A stretch of 64,000 nucleotides of DNA from an uncultured Syntrophobacteraceae bacterium. Its GTDB lineage: Bacteria; Desulfobacterota; Syntrophobacteria; Syntrophobacterales; Syntrophobacteraceae. Below, piece by piece: positions 3,697-62,330 of this stretch (the stretch's first letter is position 1; each line of letters opens with the position of its first letter). Under the pieces are notes generated by a model. The model ran no database searches and was not told the origin of the DNA. It saw nothing but the letters and a program-made list of their open reading frames with translations. The translations under genes were made by a program, and so were the position numbers. The stretch spans positions 2,617 to 66,616 of the forward strand of contig CAZDKX010000002.1 in NCBI GenBank assembly GCA_964505935.1. The letters are read 5' to 3'.

Positions 3697-5443
3697 GAGG
3701 AAAAGCCGGATCGAAGGGGAAAAAAAGTGATACGGTGGTCCCGGATTGGCCATCACTATTGACATCGAGGCGCCCCCCGAGACTTACCATCAATTGATAG
3801 ACAATGCTCAACCCCAGGCCCGTCCCGGTGTTCTTGCTGGTGAAAAAGGGCTCGAAGATACGGGGGCGGTTTTCTTCGGATATGCCGTGCCCGGCATCCG
3901 CAACCTCGATCAGCGTCTGCCCGGGAGCATCCCGGCTCGCCCTGAATTCGGCCACGCGAACGCTGAGCACGCCCCCCTCCGGCATTGCCTCCAGGCCATT
4001 GGCCATGATTTGCCAGAGCACCTGCCGCAAGTGGAGAGGATCCATCCGGAAGGTGGGGGTGACCTGAAAAATCGTCTCCACCCGGTGTCCGTCAAGCAGC
4101 AGGTCTTTTGCCCGCAACTGGGCAACAACCTCCTCAACCACGGCCGGCACGCTCACCTCTTCAATTCTGGCCGATTTTTGAGAACCCCTTGCCATCCACA
4201 GAAAATCGGTGATGAGATCATCAATGCGCCGAACCTCACGGGCAATGATATTCATCAGTTTGACTTGAAAAGGTTCCTGGGCCAATTCGTGTTGCAGCAT
4301 CTGCGCGGCGCCACTGATAGCGGCCAGGGGATTTCTGATCTCATGGGCAATTTCCGCCGCCATTTTACCCGCCTGGGCCATCCGTTCGGTACGCTGAAGG
4401 TGTTCCTCCATGGCCCGCAGAGGCGTCAGGTCCTGAAAAATGAAAACCCACCCCCATCCATCTCCGCGTTCCAGATTCAATAAGGAAACGCTGTACCCCA
4501 GACACAGCTCCTCACCTGTCGGCCGCTGATAACTGAAGTCCTTACGAACCAGCGCTTCAGGCTCGGGCTGAAGCGGATGAAGGCCTGCGCAGGGCCAATT
4601 GAGGGTATTCAGGGCAGGAAAGAGCCGGTCAATGGTCCGCCCCTTAATCTGATCCCATGGCAGAGCCAAGATCTTCTGGGCCGCATCATTGGCAAAGAGC
4701 ACCTCCCGTTCGGGGCTGATCATGAGCAAACCGCTGCTCAGGCTTTGAATGACATTGCGATGGAGGATTTCGAGCTGGTGCAAATCCCGCTCTTGCTCTC
4801 GAATCTGCTGGGTGGACCGCAACCATGCTTCTGCCAGGTAGCCGGCGAGATAGGCCGTCAGATAGAAGCCGGCAATATTCATCAGCAGACTGTGAAAGAA
4901 GGCTCCACTGTCGGGAATCTGAGAGGCTATCCCCATCAGCTGAAGCGGGGCAATCCATCCAAAGTATTGCAGATCGAGCAGCAACCCGTAGGAAAGGGCG
5001 CAGGCGGACGCGACCACGACACTGCCCCGGCGATACAGCAGCAGGGCACCACTGACAATGGCGGGCATGTAGAGGAAGGAAAAGATGCTTTCCACCCCGC
5101 CTGAGAGGTAGATCAAAAAGGTCACCGCCCCCACGTCGAAAAGTGCCTGAAGATAGGCGAATTGTCTGAGTCGCCGGACCCGCTTCAGGCTCAACGCAGC
5201 GACAATCGTGAAAGCGAAAAGAATGACCGAAAAGATATAGAGAGGTCTGAGTTGTCCTGAGAGGAGGTCCTCGGCCCGCCGGCTCTGGACAATGAGGGTG
5301 AGCGTCAAGAAAAAGACGGCAAGAAGCAGTCGGAACAACAAGACTCCCTGCAGCTTGCGCTTGAGCGAAAGATCGTTGGCATCAGCCTGGACTCGGTTGT
5401 CAGGTTCTTTTCCCGAGGTCACATCAGGTTTCAAGAAGCTCAT
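3671..5443 (-). CDS. membrane sensor histidine kinase, PilS-like (polytopic N-terminus, PAS, HisKA, HATPase), 590 aa
   Basis: About 6 hydrophobic helices in residues 30-210. H-box [23 protein letters not shown]-boxes DAGHGI...[12 protein letters not shown]. Lies directly downstream of pilB-pilC, which is where pilS normally sits. Confidence 0.8.
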
Positions 5444-50894: not shown

Positions 50895-53120
50895 ATGACC
50901 ACAGTTCGTCCGCGCTTCCGTATCGGCGTCCTGACCAGCGGTGGTGATTCACAGGGCATGAATGCCGCAGTGCGCTCCGTGGTGCGCACCGCGCTCAATC
51001 TCGGTGCGGAAGTCTTCGCCATATTCGAGGGCTATCGCGGCATGCTCGAAGGCGGCCCCTATATCAAGCAGATGGGCTGGAGCGACGTGGGAGGGATCCT
51101 CCAGGAAGGCGGCACGATCATTGGTTCGGCACGTTCGACGGCCTTCCGGCAGCGTGAAGGACAGCGCAAGGCCGCCCTCAATCTGATCACGAACGGTATC
51201 CAGGGTCTCGTCGTCATTGGCGGCGACGGCAGCCTCACCGGCGCCAATCACTTTCGCCGGGAATGGTCCGAGCTGCTCAAAGAGCTCGTTGCCGAGGGGG
51301 CCGTTGATCAGGCCACCGCCGAGGCCCATCCGTTCCTTTCCCTGGTCGGACTGGTCGGGTCCATCGACAATGATATGTTCGGCACCGACATGACCATCGG
51401 CGCAGACACCGCCCTCCATCGCATCGTGGAAGCGGTGGACGCCATTGCCGCCACCGCTGCCAGCCACCAGCGATCCTTTGTCGTGGAGGTCATGGGGAGA
51501 CATTGCGGCTACCTGGCGCTCATGGCCGGTCTGGCGACCGGCGCCAACTGGATTCTGATCCCCGAGGACCCGCCCCAGGAGGGGTGGGAAACGGAGATGT
51601 GCGAGGCGGTGTTGAGCGGGCGCCGGAGTGGGCGGCGTCACAACGTGGTCCTGGTGGCCGAGGGCGCCATTGACCGCGCCGGGAATCCCATCACGGCCGA
51701 TTATGTGAGACAAGTGCTCACCGACCGGCTCAAAGAAGACACCCGGGTGACGATCCTGGGCCATGTTCAGCGCGGCGGCGCGCCCAGCGCCTTCGATCGC
51801 AACATGAGTACCATCGTCGGCCACGCCGCTGTCCTTGAATTGCTGGCTGCCACGCCCGAGAGCGAGCCGCAGCTGATCGGCATCCGTGACAATGAGGTGG
51901 CGCGTTCGCCGCTCATGAAAAATGTGCATCAGAAGGATCGGGTCGCGGAGGCTATCGAAGCCGGCAAGTATGCCGAGGCTATGGAGCTGCGCGGCCGCAG
52001 CTTTGTCGAAGCCAACGCCATTCTGCACACGATCCTCCAGGCCCAGCCCCGCCCGCCGGAAGCCGGCCAGCGCCAATTCCGACTGGGCATCCTGCACGCC
52101 GGCGCCCCTGCACCGGGGATGAACACGGCGGTGCGCGCCGCCGTGCGTCTGGCCATCGATCAAGGGCACGTGATCCTGGGCATTCGCAACGGCGTAGCCG
52201 GGCTGCTCAGCGGCGACATCTGTGAGATGGGCTGGATGAGTGTCCATGGCTGGGTTGCCAGGGGCGGGGCGGAACTGGGCACCAGCCGCAGGCTGCCCAG
52301 AGGCGACGAATATGCGATGCTCGCCCAACGGCTGGGCGAATTCGGGATCGACGGCCTGCTGGTCATCAGCGGCTGGTCCGGCTATCAATTTGCCCACGAC
52401 CTCTTTGCCCGCCGGGCAGAAGATCGCGCCCTGCGCATTCCCATCATTTGCGTCCCGGCCTCCATCAATAACGACCTGCCCGGCGCCGGGTTGAGCATCG
52501 GCGCCGATACGGCGCTCAATACCATCGTGCAAAACGTGGACAAACTCAAGGAATCGGCCGTCGCCTCACAACGCTGCTACGTGGTGGAAGTGATGGGCTA
52601 CGACTGCGGCTACCTTGCCCTCATGGGCGGGCTGGCAACAGGCGCGGAACGTATCTATCTGCCCGAACAGGGCATCGCCCTGAACGCCCTGCGCGATGAC
52701 GTGGCGCGTTTGAAAGAAGGTTTCAGCCACGGGAAACGGTTGGGTCTGATCATTCGCAGCGAGCATGCGGACCCGCTGTACACGACGGAGTTCCTGACCA
52801 CGCTTTTCGAGAAGGAAGGCGCCGGCGTCTTCGACGTGCGGCGCTCGATCCTGGGCCATATCCAGCAGGGCGGCCGCCCCACGCCCTTCGATCGCATCCA
52901 GGCCACCCGACTTACGGCGCGCGCCCTGGGTCGCCTCATCGAGCTGGCAACCAACGGCGCGGCGGCCGCCGAAGCGGTCGGCCGCCAGGCAGGCAAGATC
53001 GGGTTCACCAACCTGGCCAACCTCGGCGACCTGATGGAGCCCGCCGCCCGTCGCCCGCAGCTGCAGCCCTGGGAAAAAATCATCGCCGTGGCTGAGATGA
53101 TGGCCGAACTGTCGCATTAG
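50895..53120 (+). CDS. pfk: 6-phosphofructokinase, long tandem-duplicated form (two PFK-A domains), 741 aa
   Basis: N-terminal half: GVLTSGGDSQGMNAA, VIGGDGSLTGA, MGRHCGYLAL. C-terminal half: GILHAGAPAPGMNTA, VISGWSGYQFA (degenerate GGDGS), MGYDCGYLAL. Confidence 0.88.
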   Translation: MTTVRPRFRIGVLTSGGDSQGMNAAVRSVVRTALNLGAEVFAIFEGYRGMLEGGPYIKQMGWSDVGGILQEGGTIIGSARSTAFRQREGQRKAALNLITNGIQGLVVIGGDGSLTGANHFRREWSELLKELVAEGAVDQATAEAHPFLSLVGLVGSIDNDMFGTDMTIGADTALHRIVEAVDAIAATAASHQRSFVVEVMGRHCGYLALMAGLATGANWILIPEDPPQEGWETEMCEAVLSGRRSGRRHNVVLVAEGAIDRAGNPITADYVRQVLTDRLKEDTRVTILGHVQRGGAPSAFDRNMSTIVGHAAVLELLAATPESEPQLIGIRDNEVARSPLMKNVHQKDRVAEAIEAGKYAEAMELRGRSFVEANAILHTILQAQPRPPEAGQRQFRLGILHAGAPAPGMNTAVRAAVRLAIDQGHVILGIRNGVAGLLSGDICEMGWMSVHGWVARGGAELGTSRRLPRGDEYAMLAQRLGEFGIDGLLVISGWSGYQFAHDLFARRAEDRALRIPIICVPASINNDLPGAGLSIGADTALNTIVQNVDKLKESAVASQRCYVVEVMGYDCGYLALMGGLATGAERIYLPEQGIALNALRDDVARLKEGFSHGKRLGLIIRSEHADPLYTTEFLTTLFEKEGAGVFDVRRSILGHIQQGGRPTPFDRIQATRLTARALGRLIELATNGAAAAEAVGRQAGKIGFTNLANLGDLMEPAARRPQLQPWEKIIAVAEMMAELSH

Positions 53121-53163
53121 AGGCTGTCCAAGATCAAGTGGCAGTTATTGCAGTCTTTTTCAA

Positions 53164-53503
53164 ACCACGAAGCACCCGAAGGACACGAAGAAATCACTTC
53201 GTGTGCTTCGTGCTCTTCGTGGTAAAGAGATCATTTGTTTTTGGACAACTCCTTAGTACCGCGCCACAGTTCAAAGTGACTTTTTGTCACGAAACGTCAT
53301 TCCCGCATGTTTCTGGCGGGAATCCGGCTTCTGGAAGTCCCATGGACCCCCGCCTGCAGCAAGGACTCTCTTACGAGAAGTTACGAGTTAGTTCTCATCC
53401 GGAAACCCCTCCCTTGGTGGGAGGGGCAGGGGGAGGGGGTGATCAAGTGCTTGGAATCGAATCATTTTTCACCCCCACCTAGCCTCCCCCATCAAGGGGG
53501 AGG
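53164..53503. repeat. mosaic of three REP-like element types downstream of pfk
   Basis: ACCACGAAG..CGAAGGACACGAAG-loop-CTTCGTGTGCTTCGTGCTCTTCGTGGT (53164-53223). ATTCCCGCatgtttctgGCGGGAAT (53299-53323). CCCCTCCC-ttggt-GGGAGGGG (53406-53426). CCTCCCCC-atcaa-GGGGGAGG (53483-53503). Confidence 0.8.
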
Positions 53504-53851
53504 AGAAATCAAGGTACTTTCCGGATGGACACGAGTTATGATTTGCGAGTGCCGGGTGGGAATCGAGCCTTTTCATGTGTCTTCGGGTGCCCCCACATGA
53601 GCAACTCCCCTTTGTTGATTGCCCCCGTGACTGCGTCGCACCATGGTGATGTTTGTCAACACCCGCCAGGAGCTCGATACAGCAATATCGCAGGATTGTC
53701 CTTGACACAATCCCTGACCGGTGCTACCCGAAAAGCCTCAAGAGGCGACTGACTATGATGCTGCTGAAGCTGGTGACGCTATCCGCGGCAGAACAGGCAG
53801 GAGGGCTGCAACGCCCGATGTCAGCGGGCCGGATAAAAGGAGGACGAAGAA

Positions 53852-53959
53852 ATGATCATGTTTGTATTGGGATTCGTAGTAGGATTGGTGGTGGCCTGGA
53901 ATTTCCTGCCTCAGCCGGCCTGGCTCAAGGACATGCTCGCCGGTTTGCGCAAGAAGTAA
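53852..53959 (+). CDS. candidate small membrane protein, 35 aa (below the ORF-track length cutoff)
   Basis: AAAGGAGG (53836-53843) lies 8 nt before the ATG. The product MIMFVLGFVVGLVVAWNFLPQPAWLKDMLAGLRKK has one TM helix and a basic tail. TAA stop at 53957-53959. Confidence 0.45.
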   Translation: MIMFVLGFVVGLVVAWNFLPQPAWLKDMLAGLRKK

Positions 53960-54121
53960 GCAGCTCCACCTGGTGCGCGATCATTCTACTCGACCGTCGA
54001 GTGAAACAAGATTTTGCACCAGCTGGAGACAACTCTCTCTCATGCTTAGAAAGTCTGTCGTGCCGCTGCTTCTGGCTGCTGCGGTTGCGACTGAGCCGGC
54101 CACTGCTGCCGCTGACCTGTC

Positions 54122-54787
54122 CTATCGCCCATCCTGCACGATGCGATGCCATTCCTGAATCACCGGCGTATCAGCCGGAAGCCTGCCAAGGGCCGCCTCA
54201 AATTGCTCCCGTGGTGCTGATGGTCCAACCCCGAAGCCAAAATCAAGCAGCGCCAGGACCGCCTTCAAGACCGAAGGCGGTTGTTTATCCAGGACCGAAA
54301 GCAGAGACGATGGATCATGACCGGCCCACAACGTTATGGCCTCTGCGTACCCTTCCGCGAAAGAGCCATCGACCCCTCTCGCCATCTTGATAAAGATCTC
54401 CGCCGCCCGGCGGTCTCCTGACGCCGCCTGCTTGCCCAGGCGTGCAACCGCAGCCTCTCCCAAAGTGGTGGATACACCGGACCCTGAGCGGCAGGAAAAC
54501 CTGGATATCTGCGTGCCGGCAATCCAACCTTCAACCGGAGCATTGATCCGGTACCAGTGTTTGCCCTTTTTGATGATTTCAATACCCGTACCACTGGGCA
54601 GGGCCGCCACGACGTTATTGCTCTTGACTTGAGGGTGAGAGCGAACATTGGCATACCCATCCGCAGCGGTCACCATGAATTTCCGGCACTCGCCCGCGTG
54701 CACCGGTTCTCCAGGGAGGACCAAGGCAAGGAACAGCGTGATGGCAGCTGCCAGTCGAGGCATGATTTGGTCTACCATCTTGACCAT
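54122..54787 (-). CDS. exported SH3b-domain protein, 221 aa; its start overlaps the upstream stop (TGATG)
   Basis: Signal peptide ..MPRLAAAITLFLALVLPGEPVHA. SH3b-like YANVRSHPQVKSNNVVAALPSGTGIEIIKKGKHWYRINAPVEGWI. Helical C-terminal half. Confidence 0.7.
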   Translation of the reverse strand: MVKMVDQIMPRLAAAITLFLALVLPGEPVHAGECRKFMVTAADGYANVRSHPQVKSNNVVAALPSGTGIEIIKKGKHWYRINAPVEGWIAGTQISRFSCRSGSGVSTTLGEAAVARLGKQAASGDRRAAEIFIKMARGVDGSFAEGYAEAITLWAGHDPSSLLSVLDKQPPSVLKAVLALLDFGFGVGPSAPREQFEAALGRLPADTPVIQEWHRIVQDGR

Positions 54788-56283
54788 CAGGGTTGTGGAC
54801 AAGTCCCCAAGCCCCAATCTACGAACAAGTCACGAGGGTCTGATTCCCGCAACCAAACGACCAATTTCTTGAAATCAGCCGCATTATAAATGCCGACGCA
54901 GCCTGCTGTGCCTGCTCCTCGCTCATAACGCCGGTTCCAATCAATGTGAATCAGGATCGCGCTGCGGCGGGTGGTACCCGGTCCCTGGTAATCGAGGAGA
55001 ATCTTTGCCGGACCGAGGCCCCGGTTCCAGATCTTGCCGCTGTAGTTGTCCTTACCGTCGGCCCATTCGATGTCATGGACATACCATTTGCCCTCCGGCA
55101 GCGGTTCGAATGACCCTGAAACACTGTCGCTTCCTGTATGGAAAAATTGCCTGTAGGGCGAGCCGGAGCAGACTTCCAAGCTGTCCTTGCGTTGCCCGTC
55201 CTTGAAATAATCCAGCTCGAGCACCGTACATCCAACTTCATCCCTACGATTGGTCCTGGTCAATGTCAGATAATGTCTCCCGGGAATAGATGGACCCTCA
55301 GCTACCGGCGGCAGCGGGGTAACCTCTCCCCACAACTTCGCCCAAGTCTTCGGACCCACCTTTCCATCCGCCTCGGCCGTGGCAAAAAACCTGGTCTGAA
55401 AGTCCCTGACACCCTCATCGGTACGGCGCCCGAAATCTCCGTCGATGGGGCCATCGTAATACCCAAGGTCTTTCAGCCGCTCCTGTAACCGCTTGACATC
55501 AGGGCCACTGCATCCTCGAGCCAGGGTGCGCTTAAGAGCTCTGGGAGGTTCCACCTTCGCCATGGCGCTTCCCCTGACGCTGAACACGATGCGCTCGCCC
55601 TCTGGAATAGCTTTTTCCGCCGGAGCAACGTGAAACTTCTCAGCATGAGGGTACTGGCGCACCGCTGCAACCCAGCTGTCTTTGGAGGAATTTTCCAGCG
55701 TAAGAATCTCGACGACCTGGTCATCTTGCCACGCAACAATGACGTCTTTTTCGCCCTGCCGATAGCCTTCGAGCAACGTGACCTTGTCCCGTGGTGACTC
55801 CTCGACCGTAATCGGCGTTCCTTCCCCGCCGACCTTTGAGAACAGCTCCCGCTCTTCTGACCTGCGCCTTGTCAGACCTTTGAGTTCCTGCTTAACACCG
55901 TTGACAATCCCCTTGTTCCACCTTGGGAACTCATCAGCCGCTCCCTGATAGTCTCCCCGATTGAGCTTCCTGAGCAGGGTACTTTCTTCCAGACTTCCCA
56001 GGCCCAGATTGTAGGAAAAGGATACCAGCGCATCGAACTGGTTTTGGTTGAGCGGCACTTTGACCAGATGCGTAACGCCTTTTGCCACCGCATCGCACTC
56101 AAACTTGAGAAAAGCCTCCGCCTCCTGTTCGGTAATGCGGTCGCCAAGGCGAACTTTATGCCCGTCGGGATAACGGATTGTCCCATAGCCGATGGTTGGT
56201 ATCCCTACCGGGTCAAGATAAGCATCGAGACGTAACCCTTCGAACTTCTCAATCAATGCGGTGCCGTTTTGGGAAACATGCAT
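54787..56283 (-). CDS. three-domain cell-wall enzyme: GH24 lysozyme, PG_binding_1 domain and an L,D-transpeptidase-fold (YkuD/Tlde1-like) domain; 498 aa, no signal peptide
   Basis: FEGLRLDAYLDPVGIPTIGYG aligns with T4 lysozyme [21 protein letters not shown], with the Glu-9-Asp-6-Thr spacing preserved (E15, D24, T30). GPDVKRLQERLKDLGYYDGPIDGDFGRRTDEGVRDFQ. C-terminal EPLPEGKWYV...ILIHID-x9-GTAGCVGI (His...Thr-x-Gly-Cys). AGGAGG Shine-Dalgarno. Confidence 0.8.
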   Translation of the reverse strand: MHVSQNGTALIEKFEGLRLDAYLDPVGIPTIGYGTIRYPDGHKVRLGDRITEQEAEAFLKFECDAVAKGVTHLVKVPLNQNQFDALVSFSYNLGLGSLEESTLLRKLNRGDYQGAADEFPRWNKGIVNGVKQELKGLTRRRSEERELFSKVGGEGTPITVEESPRDKVTLLEGYRQGEKDVIVAWQDDQVVEILTLENSSKDSWVAAVRQYPHAEKFHVAPAEKAIPEGERIVFSVRGSAMAKVEPPRALKRTLARGCSGPDVKRLQERLKDLGYYDGPIDGDFGRRTDEGVRDFQTRFFATAEADGKVGPKTWAKLWGEVTPLPPVAEGPSIPGRHYLTLTRTNRRDEVGCTVLELDYFKDGQRKDSLEVCSGSPYRQFFHTGSDSVSGSFEPLPEGKWYVHDIEWADGKDNYSGKIWNRGLGPAKILLDYQGPGTTRRSAILIHIDWNRRYERGAGTAGCVGIYNAADFKKLVVWLRESDPRDLFVDWGLGTCPQP

Positions 56284-56415
56284 ATCGATCTCCTCCTGAA
56301 ATCACGTCAAGGTACCATTAATGGGATTTTACCGCCCCTTTGGCCGCTGCCTTGGTCTCTCCCGATCGATAGGATGGTTGGTCAGTAAGCGTAATGGATG
56401 AATCAAACTGACGGA

Positions 56416-57204
56416 TTATGGCAATACGTTATTCAGTTGTTTGACCTTGCCCTGCTCATCGAACCAGACGGCGCCGTCGGCCATCATGATGCCCTCGGCG
56501 TTGGCGAACATATGGTGGGGAATGCCTTTCGCAATGCGATTGATGAAGTTCCTGGTAAAGATTGCATCATAGTATCTCAAGAATTCCGCCTGATTGGCCG
56601 CCGTCTTGCGCTGACCATTCTGGAAGAAAGCGACCGGATAGGCCACGTAGCGCCCCGCTGTCGCCCGTTTCCCAGCCAGCACGGCTTCCAGGAATGCCCG
56701 GGCGTTGCGCTCCACCAGCGCATCGTCCTCGGCCCCGGCTACCGCATAGCGACCTTGCCCGGGAATCAGTCGCGTGGTACCGGTCTGCCGAAGGTACACC
56801 GGGTAGCGCCGCTTGCCGTCGGCACCTGTCCACTCACCGACGAGCACTTCCTTATCCAGCCGAGCAGAGCCGAAGTTGCCCCGGGGGTCCCGGTCGAGGA
56901 ATCTCAAGGTGAAAACGCCGCCGCTGGTGCCGTCAGCGGCACGTTCACGCAATACGAGGTCCCGCTCACCCACAAACTCGCCCTCCAGGTGCAGGTCTTG
57001 CAGGTATTTCCGGTAGAAATAAACACCCTGTATCTTCTTCCGGTCATGAGGGTCCTCAAGGCTCATGCCGATCAGAATGTTCTTGTTAAGGTCTCCCCTG
57101 TAGTCAATATACCTTACTTCCGTCGGTCCCTTCTCCTGGGCTCCGGAAAGTACCGGTGAGCAGAGCAGACAGGCAATCATCACGATGAAGAAGCCGTTCT
57201 TCAT
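56416..57204 (-). CDS. exported hypothetical protein, 262 aa
   Basis: Signal peptide MKNGFFIVMIACLLCSPVLSGAQE and a GGAGA Shine-Dalgarno. I do not recognise a family. Confidence 0.6.
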   Translation of the reverse strand: MKNGFFIVMIACLLCSPVLSGAQEKGPTEVRYIDYRGDLNKNILIGMSLEDPHDRKKIQGVYFYRKYLQDLHLEGEFVGERDLVLRERAADGTSGGVFTLRFLDRDPRGNFGSARLDKEVLVGEWTGADGKRRYPVYLRQTGTTRLIPGQGRYAVAGAEDDALVERNARAFLEAVLAGKRATAGRYVAYPVAFFQNGQRKTAANQAEFLRYYDAIFTRNFINRIAKGIPHHMFANAEGIMMADGAVWFDEQGKVKQLNNVLP

Positions 57205-58885: not shown

Positions 58886-58960
58886 ACCACGAAGGACCCG
58901 AAGATCACGAAGTAAAGCCACTTTGTATGATCTCTTCGTGTCCTTCGTGCTCTTCGTGGT
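58886..58960. repeat. CACGAAG/CTTCGTG REP-like hairpin between the RND permease and OMF genes
   Basis: ACCACGAAGGACCCGAAGATCACGAAG - loop - CTCTTCGTGTCCTTCGTGCTCTTCGTGGT. Confidence 0.8.
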
Positions 58961-59002
58961 TAAGGAGAAACATCTTTCTTGCGATGCTGTGCATGTTCGT
59001 CG

Positions 59003-62255: not shown

Positions 62256-62330
62256 ACCACGAAGGACGCGAAGAGCGCGAGGAAGAAACCACCTTTCTTA
62301 TCTCTTCGTGTTCTTCGTGTCCTTCGTGGT
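62256..62330. repeat. CACGAAG/CTTCGTG REP-like hairpin between the two RND permease genes
   Basis: ACCACGAAGGACGCGAAGAGCGCGAGGAAG - loop - CTCTTCGTGTTCTTCGTGTCCTTCGTGGT. Confidence 0.8.

Follow-up and report, generated by a model that had tools for sequence, protein, structure and literature searches.

YkuD domains are a rare class among the catalytic domains of phage lysins, with 10 proteins listed in PhaLP (PMC8310338) and three in a domain table of endolysins (PMC5017753). In these lysins catalytic and wall-binding modules are combined, and the same combination is found in the protein described here, a predicted peptidoglycan hydrolase of 498 aa (the enzyme) that is encoded on the minus strand, at positions 54787-56283, of a 64,000-nucleotide stretch of DNA from an uncultured Syntrophobacteraceae bacterium (the window). 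The catalogue entries are phage-borne, whereas the enzyme is cellular. No biochemical study of the YkuD class of phage lysins was found in the literature.

The enzyme is another member of this known class, the phage-type modular hydrolases whose second catalytic domain is of the rare YkuD class. It is probably a two-headed peptidoglycan hydrolase of phage type that was acquired horizontally together with the gene directly downstream, which encodes an exported protein with an SH3b domain (the SH3b partner), and that is now an orphan on the chromosome. As a horizontally acquired copy, the locus is unremarkable within its family and does not amount to a new type of system. A first-pass annotation of the same DNA had read it as a possible toxin-immunity module; this is not supported, given that the neighbouring genes are not co-conserved with the enzyme and that no secretion markers were found in the genes and loci surveyed below.

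Two other groups of described proteins are relevant for the comparison. Csd6 and Bd1075 have the YkuD Cys/His core in common with the C-terminal domain of the enzyme, at a sequence identity of only 12-14%. They are exported cell-shape determinants without a muramidase fusion, whereas the enzyme is signal-less and fused to a GH24 domain, and unlike them it has Ala in place of the His of (S/T)HGC and no trailing Arg. The Tlde1 type VI secretion effectors (DUF2778, PF10908; for example Salmonella Tlde1a) are signal-less YkuD-like L,D-peptidases that act on peptidoglycan and have a H...(S/T)xGC motif, like that of the C-terminal domain of the enzyme (PMC9638812). The spacing between the His and the Cys is 10 in Tlde1a (H121/C131; PMC9638812) versus 16 in the enzyme. 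Furthermore, the enzyme has no Rhs or PAAR fusion and no type VI secretion system (T6SS) context in the scanned genes of the window. This Pfam scan comprised the genes within 10 kb on either side of the locus and the ten largest open reading frames (ORFs) in positions 1-36,000.

Phage counterparts, architecture and family of the enzyme

A translated search covering 50,697 phage records found the GH24 head and the C-terminal YkuD-fold domain of the enzyme together in Nodularia siphoviruses (Ravarandavirus: vB_NspS-kac65v151 and vB_NpeS-2AV2) and in cyanophage S-2L. In the former the fusion is gp077, annotated 'endolysin', a protein of 417 aa with a GH24, a middle and a C-terminal domain, which is 46.6% identical to the enzyme over 82% of the length. 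In the latter it is S2L_53, annotated 'lysozyme', a protein of 380 aa with a GH24 and a C-terminal domain. Both proteins keep the H...TAGC motif and lack a signal peptide, and their C-terminal domains are 48-50% identical to that of the enzyme and up to 64% identical to those of other family members. The cysteines that correspond to Cys372 and Cys495 of the enzyme are present in gp077 and both missing in the S-2L protein. Neither phage protein contains PG_binding_1, of which the enzyme has one copy. The fusion had at first been taken as uncharacterised, which is correct in so far as no study of a GH24-YkuD fusion, biochemical or other, nor of the SH3b partner was found in the literature; the architecture was, however, already annotated as a Nodularia phage endolysin and an S-2L lysozyme.

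The phage genes adjoin small transmembrane (holin-like) proteins and have no SH3b partner, which was not found anywhere in the phage collection. S2L_53 lies directly after tail-fibre genes, and this is a normal setting for a lysis cassette. The enzyme, in contrast, is encoded on the chromosome, in surroundings without a phage gene, an integrase or a tRNA and with no adjacent holin-like gene on its strand, although it is, like its phage counterparts, a modular hydrolase made in the cytoplasm (no signal peptide) and homologous to phage endolysins.

Profile and structure libraries of viral proteins gave a similar picture. The PHROG family phrog_7 'endolysin' matched aa 1-497 of the enzyme with an E-value of 6.7e-67. 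In the viral structure library BFVD, the model of the C-terminal domain matched the Nodularia endolysin with a TM-score of 0.94 and a tape-measure protein with a TMq of 0.71, further matches being a Prochlorococcus phage protein, Synechococcus phage GH19/tail-lysozyme proteins and a large polyvalent protein. A pattern scan of IMG/VR returned GH24-only matches; the patterns used miss the phage variants EPLPEGSW and EPIPEGLW, and this result is therefore no evidence of absence.

The three-module architecture proposed at first pass (GH24, PG_binding_1 and a YkuD-type C-terminus) was borne out by Pfam and by fold comparison. The GH24 muramidase domain, of the T4/P22 type, occupies aa 1-150 (55834-56283, minus strand, as for all the domains of the enzyme), with Phage_lysozyme PF00959 matched at aa 13-144 (E 1e-45; 155.5 bits versus a cutoff of 22.3). 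In muramidases of this type the catalytic triad is spaced Glu-8aa-Asp/Cys-5aa-Thr. The corresponding residues in the enzyme are Glu15 (codon 56239-56241), Asp24 and Thr30. Among 160 unique homologues, Glu15 is found in 159 and Thr30 in 156, while position 24 is Asp in 137 and Cys in 23, indicating that the Glu/Asp/Thr spacing, which had been described as intact, is also conserved across the family. The GH24 domain is followed by a middle domain of about 90 aa (about aa 160-250; 55534-55806) that has no Pfam or NCBIfam match. It is conserved in the homologue alignment (A1), is common to the enzyme and the Nodularia phage endolysin gp077, and recurs in architectures where it stands between GH24 and the C-terminal domain or precedes the C-terminal domain alone. 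PG_binding_1, a wall-anchoring module, was matched once (PF01471, E 2.8e-17), at aa 259-317 (55333-55509).

The family is large, with more than 1000 full-length homologues, counted as sequence clusters at 90% identity, that are 53-70% identical to the enzyme. They occur in the cyanobacteria Microcystis, Nostoc, Anabaena, Okeania and Trichodesmium, in Acidobacteria (Pyrinomonadaceae), in gammaproteobacterial metagenome-assembled genomes (MAGs), and in Thiohalocapsa, Roseiarcus and Kineosporia, and are annotated only as 'lysozyme' or 'glycoside hydrolase family protein'. In Okeania, Trichodesmium, Dapis and Microcystis the gene shows synteny with housekeeping genes at the level of the lineage; the neighbours in these and other loci, read from representative sequences, are presumably pdxJ, urease, RNase J, recJ and uppP genes. 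This stable synteny indicates that it is a maintained chromosomal gene. Clustering of the genes at 80 related loci revealed no phage genes.

These data bear on the possibility that the enzyme gene is an inert relic, without a present function, of a prophage lysis cassette that has decayed and lost its holin and its phage neighbours. The endolysin-type architecture, with 'endolysin' as the best PHROG, is in line with such an origin, and so are the lack of an export signal and of a holin, the foreign GC content at third codon positions (GC3, see below) and the 1-kb gene-poor stretch beside the pair of genes. Nonetheless, the ORF is full-length with every catalytic residue intact and is preceded by a strong Shine-Dalgarno sequence (AGGAGG, 8 nt upstream of the ATG), the more than 1000 homologues are likewise full-length and keep His446 and Cys462 in 160/160 and Glu15 in 159/160 of those aligned, housekeeping synteny is conserved within cyanobacterial lineages, and the 80 related loci are free of phage genes. 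Given that the family keeps its full length and its catalytic residues, an inert remnant is unlikely, and of the explanations discussed here it is one to which we assign hardly any probability.

The C-terminal domain also occurs outside the architecture of the enzyme. A search of 1.84 billion representative proteins with its profile gave 474 clusters, and architectures were tallied with four family hidden Markov models (HMMs) for the best 149 of them. In 101 of these the C-terminal domain is alone or accompanied by regions outside the four HMMs, in 18 it follows GH24, in six it is part of the full four-part architecture, and in two it precedes GH24. The Pfam partners in 50 members without GH24 were Amidase_2 (8), Amidase_3 (7), Glucosaminidase (3), SLT, SH3, PG_binding_1, and PPC with the sorting tail of the type IX secretion system, Por_Secre_tail (4). 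T6SS markers, PAAR, VgrG and Rhs among them, were not found in these members. With further lytic domains as its partners, the C-terminal domain behaves as a lytic module, and on these architectures it is predicted to be a modular lytic unit of cell-wall hydrolases. It is also embedded in two giant proteins, P0264 (2742 aa) and P0186 (5260 aa; residues about 4566-5000). In P0186 a PLD-like N-terminus is followed by the YkuD-like domain and then by an M23 motif, an arrangement that resembles a polyvalent protein of phages or conjugative elements.

The C-terminal YkuD-fold domain

The C-terminal domain (aa 333-498; 54790-55287) is a divergent member of the YkuD superfamily, structurally nearest to carboxypeptidases, and does not belong to the Tlde1 family. 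When the full protein was scanned, YkuD (PF03734) was matched at aa 359-483 with 22.5 bits, just below the cutoff of 23.4, and when the last 166 aa were scanned alone the score rose to 25.8 bits. The same family was matched in 19 of 20 homologous C-terminal domains, with a best E-value of 2.1e-7. An AlphaFold2 model of the domain, built from 20 homologous domains, had a pLDDT of 92.3 and a pTM of 0.89, and the best 41 of the 50 PDB matches listed by Foldseek for this model were all YkuD-family enzymes. The nearest three, Csd6, Ldtfm of E. faecium and Bd1075, had a Foldseek probability of 1.0 and TMq values of 0.50-0.59. The best of all was Csd6 of H. pylori (4xzz; E 1.7e-4, TMq 0.59), with Bd1075 of Bdellovibrio (7o21) at a TMq of 0.55 and LdtMt2 at 0.37-0.44. 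Searches of the PDB by sequence, with the single sequence and with a profile, gave only chance-level matches, and for this reason Pfam and fold comparison were needed to recognise the kinship with YkuD.

The domain had been likened at first pass both to the YkuD L,D-transpeptidases and to Tlde1/DUF2778. The former likeness stood, while the latter did not: Tlde1_dom (PF10908) reached 12.6 bits in the full protein and 14.2 bits in the domain alone versus a cutoff of 30.1, matched 9 of the 20 homologous domains weakly (best E 0.0048), and no structure described as Tlde1 was among the 50 PDB fold matches listed.

The motifs of the domain are EPLPEGKWYV at aa 393-402 and H446-x12-T459-A-G-C462-V, with the codon of His446 at 54946-54948 and that of Cys462 at 54898-54900. 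In the 160 unique homologues His446, Asp448 and Cys462 are invariant (160/160), and Asn450, Thr459 and Gly461 are nearly so. The distance from His446 to Cys462 is 16, which equals that of B. subtilis YkuD, as counted in a YkuD sequence verified against 1y7m. An alignment by hhalign of the domain profile with the single B. subtilis YkuD sequence placed Cys462 on Cys139, over only 12 columns. The canonical YkuD motif has been given as H-x(14-17)-(S/T)HGCh(-R/N) (PMC9638812). The refutation test set for the YkuD-type reading was a non-catalytic fold or a loss of the His/Cys pair in homologues, and what was found is a YkuD-type fold in which this pair is conserved.

A second pair of residues, Cys372 and Cys495, covaries in the family: among the 160 homologues both are present in 139, both are absent in 14, and 7 are discordant. 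This pattern suggests a disulfide within the C-terminal domain, which would stabilise it outside the cytoplasm; a pair of this kind points to action outside the cytoplasm, in an oxidising compartment.

The YkuD fold and the conserved Cys/His pair are equally those of the synthetic L,D-transpeptidases (Ldts), and the stable chromosomal inheritance seen in several lineages would also suit a housekeeping role in wall remodelling, in which the C-terminal domain makes 3-3 cross-links or attaches proteins to the peptidoglycan. Characterised Ldts typically carry a signal peptide, and the enzyme does not. It is moreover fused to a muramidase, its relatives are fused to amidases and glucosaminidases, and the domain is used in phage endolysins and virion lysins. 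The closest structures are the carboxypeptidases Csd6 and Bd1075, and the histidine of SHGC is lost together with the trailing Arg. On account of the fusion partners and of the use that phages make of the domain, a synthetic role is unlikely, and we regard it as highly improbable.

If the enzyme is, as we favour, a phage-type two-headed peptidoglycan hydrolase, its GH24 head would cut MurNAc-GlcNAc bonds while PG_binding_1 would tether it to the sacculus. In the second head, Cys462 would react with the carbonyl at the L-centre of the diamino acid, and the resulting acyl-enzyme would be hydrolysed. From the general chemistry of YkuD-family enzymes and from its closest structures (Csd6 and Bd1075), this head is proposed to be an L,D-carboxypeptidase or endopeptidase; it would either remove D-Ala4 (stem trimming) or sever the donor side of the cross-link. 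The enzyme would be made in the cytoplasm and, because no holin is encoded beside it, would depend on a membrane lesion, on the death of a subpopulation or on some export system to reach the wall. The SH3b partner would be a periplasmic accessory, frequent but dispensable.

Several points weigh against this explanation. The bond that the C-terminal domain would cut is suggested only by fold neighbours, at TM-scores of 0.55-0.59, and for every member of the family hydrolase activity is a prediction. In the family, Ala, Val, Ile or Leu stands in place of the second His of (S/T)HGC, and GC(I/V) is followed by Gly or Ala in place of the Arg, which means that the chemistry of the C-terminal domain could differ. 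The enzyme has neither a holin beside it nor a secretion signal by which it could reach its substrate in the wall. The fusion of GH24 with the C-terminal domain is rare in isolated phages, with two lineages among the 50,697 records, and given that there are only two such lineages and that the IMG/VR matches were GH24-only, 'phage-derived' could equally be 'host-derived, captured by phages'. Finally, the conservation across phyla and the presence of a conserved partner hint at a cellular role that goes beyond the favoured explanation.

The family is large and includes the bloom formers Microcystis and Trichodesmium. It is of interest which bond is cut by a lytic YkuD-fold domain, and why many bacteria keep an intact endolysin-like gene without a holin.

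The SH3b partner

The three ORFs of the locus were confirmed on the minus strand: the upstream gene (56416-57204), which encodes an exported protein of 262 aa that matched no family, the enzyme gene (54787-56283), and the gene of the SH3b partner (54122-54787), which encodes an exported protein of 221 aa. The overlap described at first pass between the stop of the enzyme gene and the start of the SH3b gene is present in the sequence, where the ATG at 54787-54785 overlaps the TGA of the enzyme by one base (TGATG). In the ORF listing the SH3b gene starts further upstream, at a TTG at 54817, and has 231 aa; the 221-aa product is identical to that of the gene called in public assemblies, and the SH3b gene is probably 54122-54787, with the TTG-started ORF an over-extension. 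Each of the two neighbours has a hydrophobic, signal-like segment at its N-terminus, in agreement with the earlier view that both are exported, and the enzyme, with a GH24 match from residue 2, has no hydrophobic N-terminal segment, as was also expected for a protein without a signal peptide.

The SH3b partner consists of a signal peptide, an SH3b domain (SH3_3, E 2e-06 in Pfam) and a C-terminal domain of seven helices. The SH3b domain is bracketed by two invariant cysteines, Cys35 and Cys100 in the numbering of alignment A5, which are Cys34 and Cys99 in the 221-aa product. The AlphaFold2 model, which rests on 9 sequences, has a pLDDT of 81.8 and shows a helix at aa 8-23. Fold matches were obtained for the SH3b part only, to wall-binding domains of lysins, and the fold search found no match of the helical domain to a known immunity or lysozyme-inhibitor fold. 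Neither PHROGs nor NCBIfam yielded an informative match for the SH3b protein or the 262-aa protein. A role as a spanin was considered for the SH3b gene and rejected, given the cleavable-looking signal of its product, the SH3b and globular helical domains, and its absence from phages.

The composition of the two genes sets them apart from their surroundings. GC3 is 0.613 in the enzyme gene and 0.631 in the SH3b gene versus 0.71-0.84 in twelve other genes of the window, indicating horizontal acquisition of just these two, which look like a jointly acquired unit. In the plasmid pNsp_e of Nostoc sp. ATCC 53789 (L174, 8001-11474), the enzyme and SH3b genes are split only by an ISAs1 insertion, and they lie near a Tn3 transposase, a recombinase and relaxase/MobC genes.

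Among 67 species-level loci with an assessable downstream region, the SH3b gene stands directly after the enzyme gene and on the same strand in 15, at an offset of -34 to +239 nt relative to where the enzyme match ends. Carriers are, among others, Microcystis, Anabaena, Hydrococcus, Xenococcaceae, gammaproteobacterial MAGs and Thiohalocapsa, and the enzymes that have the partner are scattered over the enzyme tree. The start/stop overlap, seen in the window and at another locus (L169), is not a conserved feature of the family. A clean 1.6-kb deletion in Microcystis aeruginosa LEGE 91341 (L025), with respect to a second locus (L074, 9627-11234), removes the SH3b gene and the gene after it and leaves the enzyme gene intact; nucleotide identity is 95.8% across the shared flank that includes the enzyme gene and 96-98% for the enzyme gene with the flanking synteny. 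This frequent absence and the clean deletion are not what an indispensable immunity gene would show, and they do not support an obligatory immunity role for the SH3b gene. The SH3b protein could be an optional periplasmic accessory, acting as an inhibitor, a modulator or a wall-targeting factor.

As an alternative, the enzyme could be an effector or a bacteriocin-like toxin, exported by a T6SS, by an extracellular contractile injection system (eCIS), by release on lysis or otherwise, that kills competitors through degradation of their walls while the SH3b partner provides immunity. The layout is what such a system would have, with a signal-less enzyme, a periplasmic partner on the same strand, and a start/stop overlap in the window and in L169. 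The pair has been kept in cyanobacteria, in Gammaproteobacteria, in the clade of the window and on a Nostoc plasmid, the GC3 of both genes is foreign, and the disulfide-like Cys pair points to extracytoplasmic action. YkuD-like L,D-peptidase toxins do exist, as Tlde1 shows (PMC9638812), and according to the authors of a study on Tlde1 there are cyanobacterial DUF2778 homologues without a known secretion route (bioRxiv 10.1101/2020.02.18.954545). Nonetheless, the partner is missing in 52 of the 67 loci, has been deleted beside an intact enzyme gene in a Microcystis strain, and is separated from the enzyme by an insertion sequence in Nostoc; its helical domain matches no known immunity or lysozyme-inhibitor fold, and in phages the same enzyme serves as an endolysin with no such partner. 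No T6SS, eCIS, PAAR, VgrG or Rhs gene was found in the scanned genes of the window, the 80 related loci or the 50 other architectures, and Tlde1_dom stays under its cutoff. Bacteriocins of the pesticin type carry an N-terminal translocation or receptor domain, for which the enzyme, with GH24 from residue 1, has no room. A pesticin/Pim-like bacteriocin was rejected for this position of GH24 and because a phage endolysin, too, retains the middle domain, the one region without an assignment. Taken as a whole, an effector-immunity system is an unlikely explanation for the locus.

A related proposal is that the enzyme and the SH3b protein form a plasmid-mobile bacteriolysin-immunity (lysin-antilysin) pair that has spread over cyanobacteria, Acidobacteria and Proteobacteria, with the enzyme leaving the cell non-classically or by the death of a subpopulation and attacking the walls of neighbours. 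We consider this doubtful to a similar degree. If it were true, the disulfide-clamped SH3b/helical protein would define a new inhibitor class, directed at a phage-type lysozyme or an L,D-peptidase, and hosts could employ it to dampen lysis when a cyanophage has the same endolysin. An inhibitory SH3b partner could also have a bearing on the dynamics of lysis between cyanophages and their hosts and on the design of lysins against cyanobacteria.

Gene neighbourhood of the locus

The 262-aa protein encoded upstream of the enzyme belongs to no recognised family, as had been stated at first pass, with no match in Pfam, NCBIfam, PHROG or PADLOC. Its gene adjoins the enzyme gene only in the close clade of the window (L170, at 63% identity, and L173) and is present in none of the 80 related genome loci. 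Homologues at 49-50% identity (L171, L172) are located between purN and tyrS, away from any enzyme gene, and the gene has a host-like GC3 of 0.711. It had been considered as part of the module, which is not supported, given this lack of co-conservation and the purN-tyrS position of the distant homologues; it is probably a lineage-specific bystander. The location of the distant members, in a purine-biosynthesis neighbourhood, is conserved.

Within 10 kb of the enzyme gene there are a resistance-nodulation-division (RND) efflux operon with an outer-membrane factor (OEP), a 741-aa phosphofructokinase and an oligopeptide ABC transporter, and elsewhere in the window there are type IV pilus genes, GroEL, a hybrid-cluster protein and histidine kinases. 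The RND/OEP efflux, type IV pilus and hybrid-cluster genes indicate a diderm host, which is probably anaerobic. In the scanned part of the window Pfam matched no T6SS gene, no integrase and no structural gene of a phage, which agrees with the initial observation and leaves no recognisable prophage there, and T6SS genes were likewise not found among the recurrent neighbours in the 80 related loci. Scans of the window for tRNAs and with Rfam at gathering thresholds found nothing, the scan for promoters and terminators performed no better than on shuffled sequences, and PADLOC gave no defence match for any of the three proteins.

In the window there is no holin-like small transmembrane gene beside the enzyme on its strand, and none is conserved next to the enzyme in 57 loci. 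Small transmembrane ORFs on the same strand occur upstream in 5 of these 57 loci and downstream in 15, about seven of the latter being the signal peptide of the SH3b protein and the rest scattered short ORFs.

The region downstream of the pair contains a 1-kb gene-poor gap (53121-54121) with a GC content of 0.542 and no tRNA or Rfam match. Inside it lies a 35-aa ORF with a single transmembrane segment, MIMFVLGFVVGLVVAWNFLPQPAWLKDMLAGLRKK (53852-53959, plus strand), which is called in the public assembly. It is the only small transmembrane ORF nearby, lies on the other strand some 160 bp past the SH3b gene and is convergent with it, and may be either a lysin-related small membrane peptide or an unrelated or spurious ORF. 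On the other side of the gap, the gene of the phosphofructokinase family (50895-53120, plus strand), which is unusually long at 741 aa, is convergent to the lysin pair.

A palindromic element made of CTTCGTG heptamers, similar to repetitive extragenic palindromic (REP) sequences, is found at 53163-53227, after the phosphofructokinase gene, at 58886-58964, in the spacer that separates the RND pump from the OEP gene, and at 62304-62330, upstream of the RND pump. The element gave five pattern matches versus none expected by chance. Two of its copies bracket 5.7 kb that comprise the OEP gene, the 262-aa gene, the enzyme gene and the SH3b gene.

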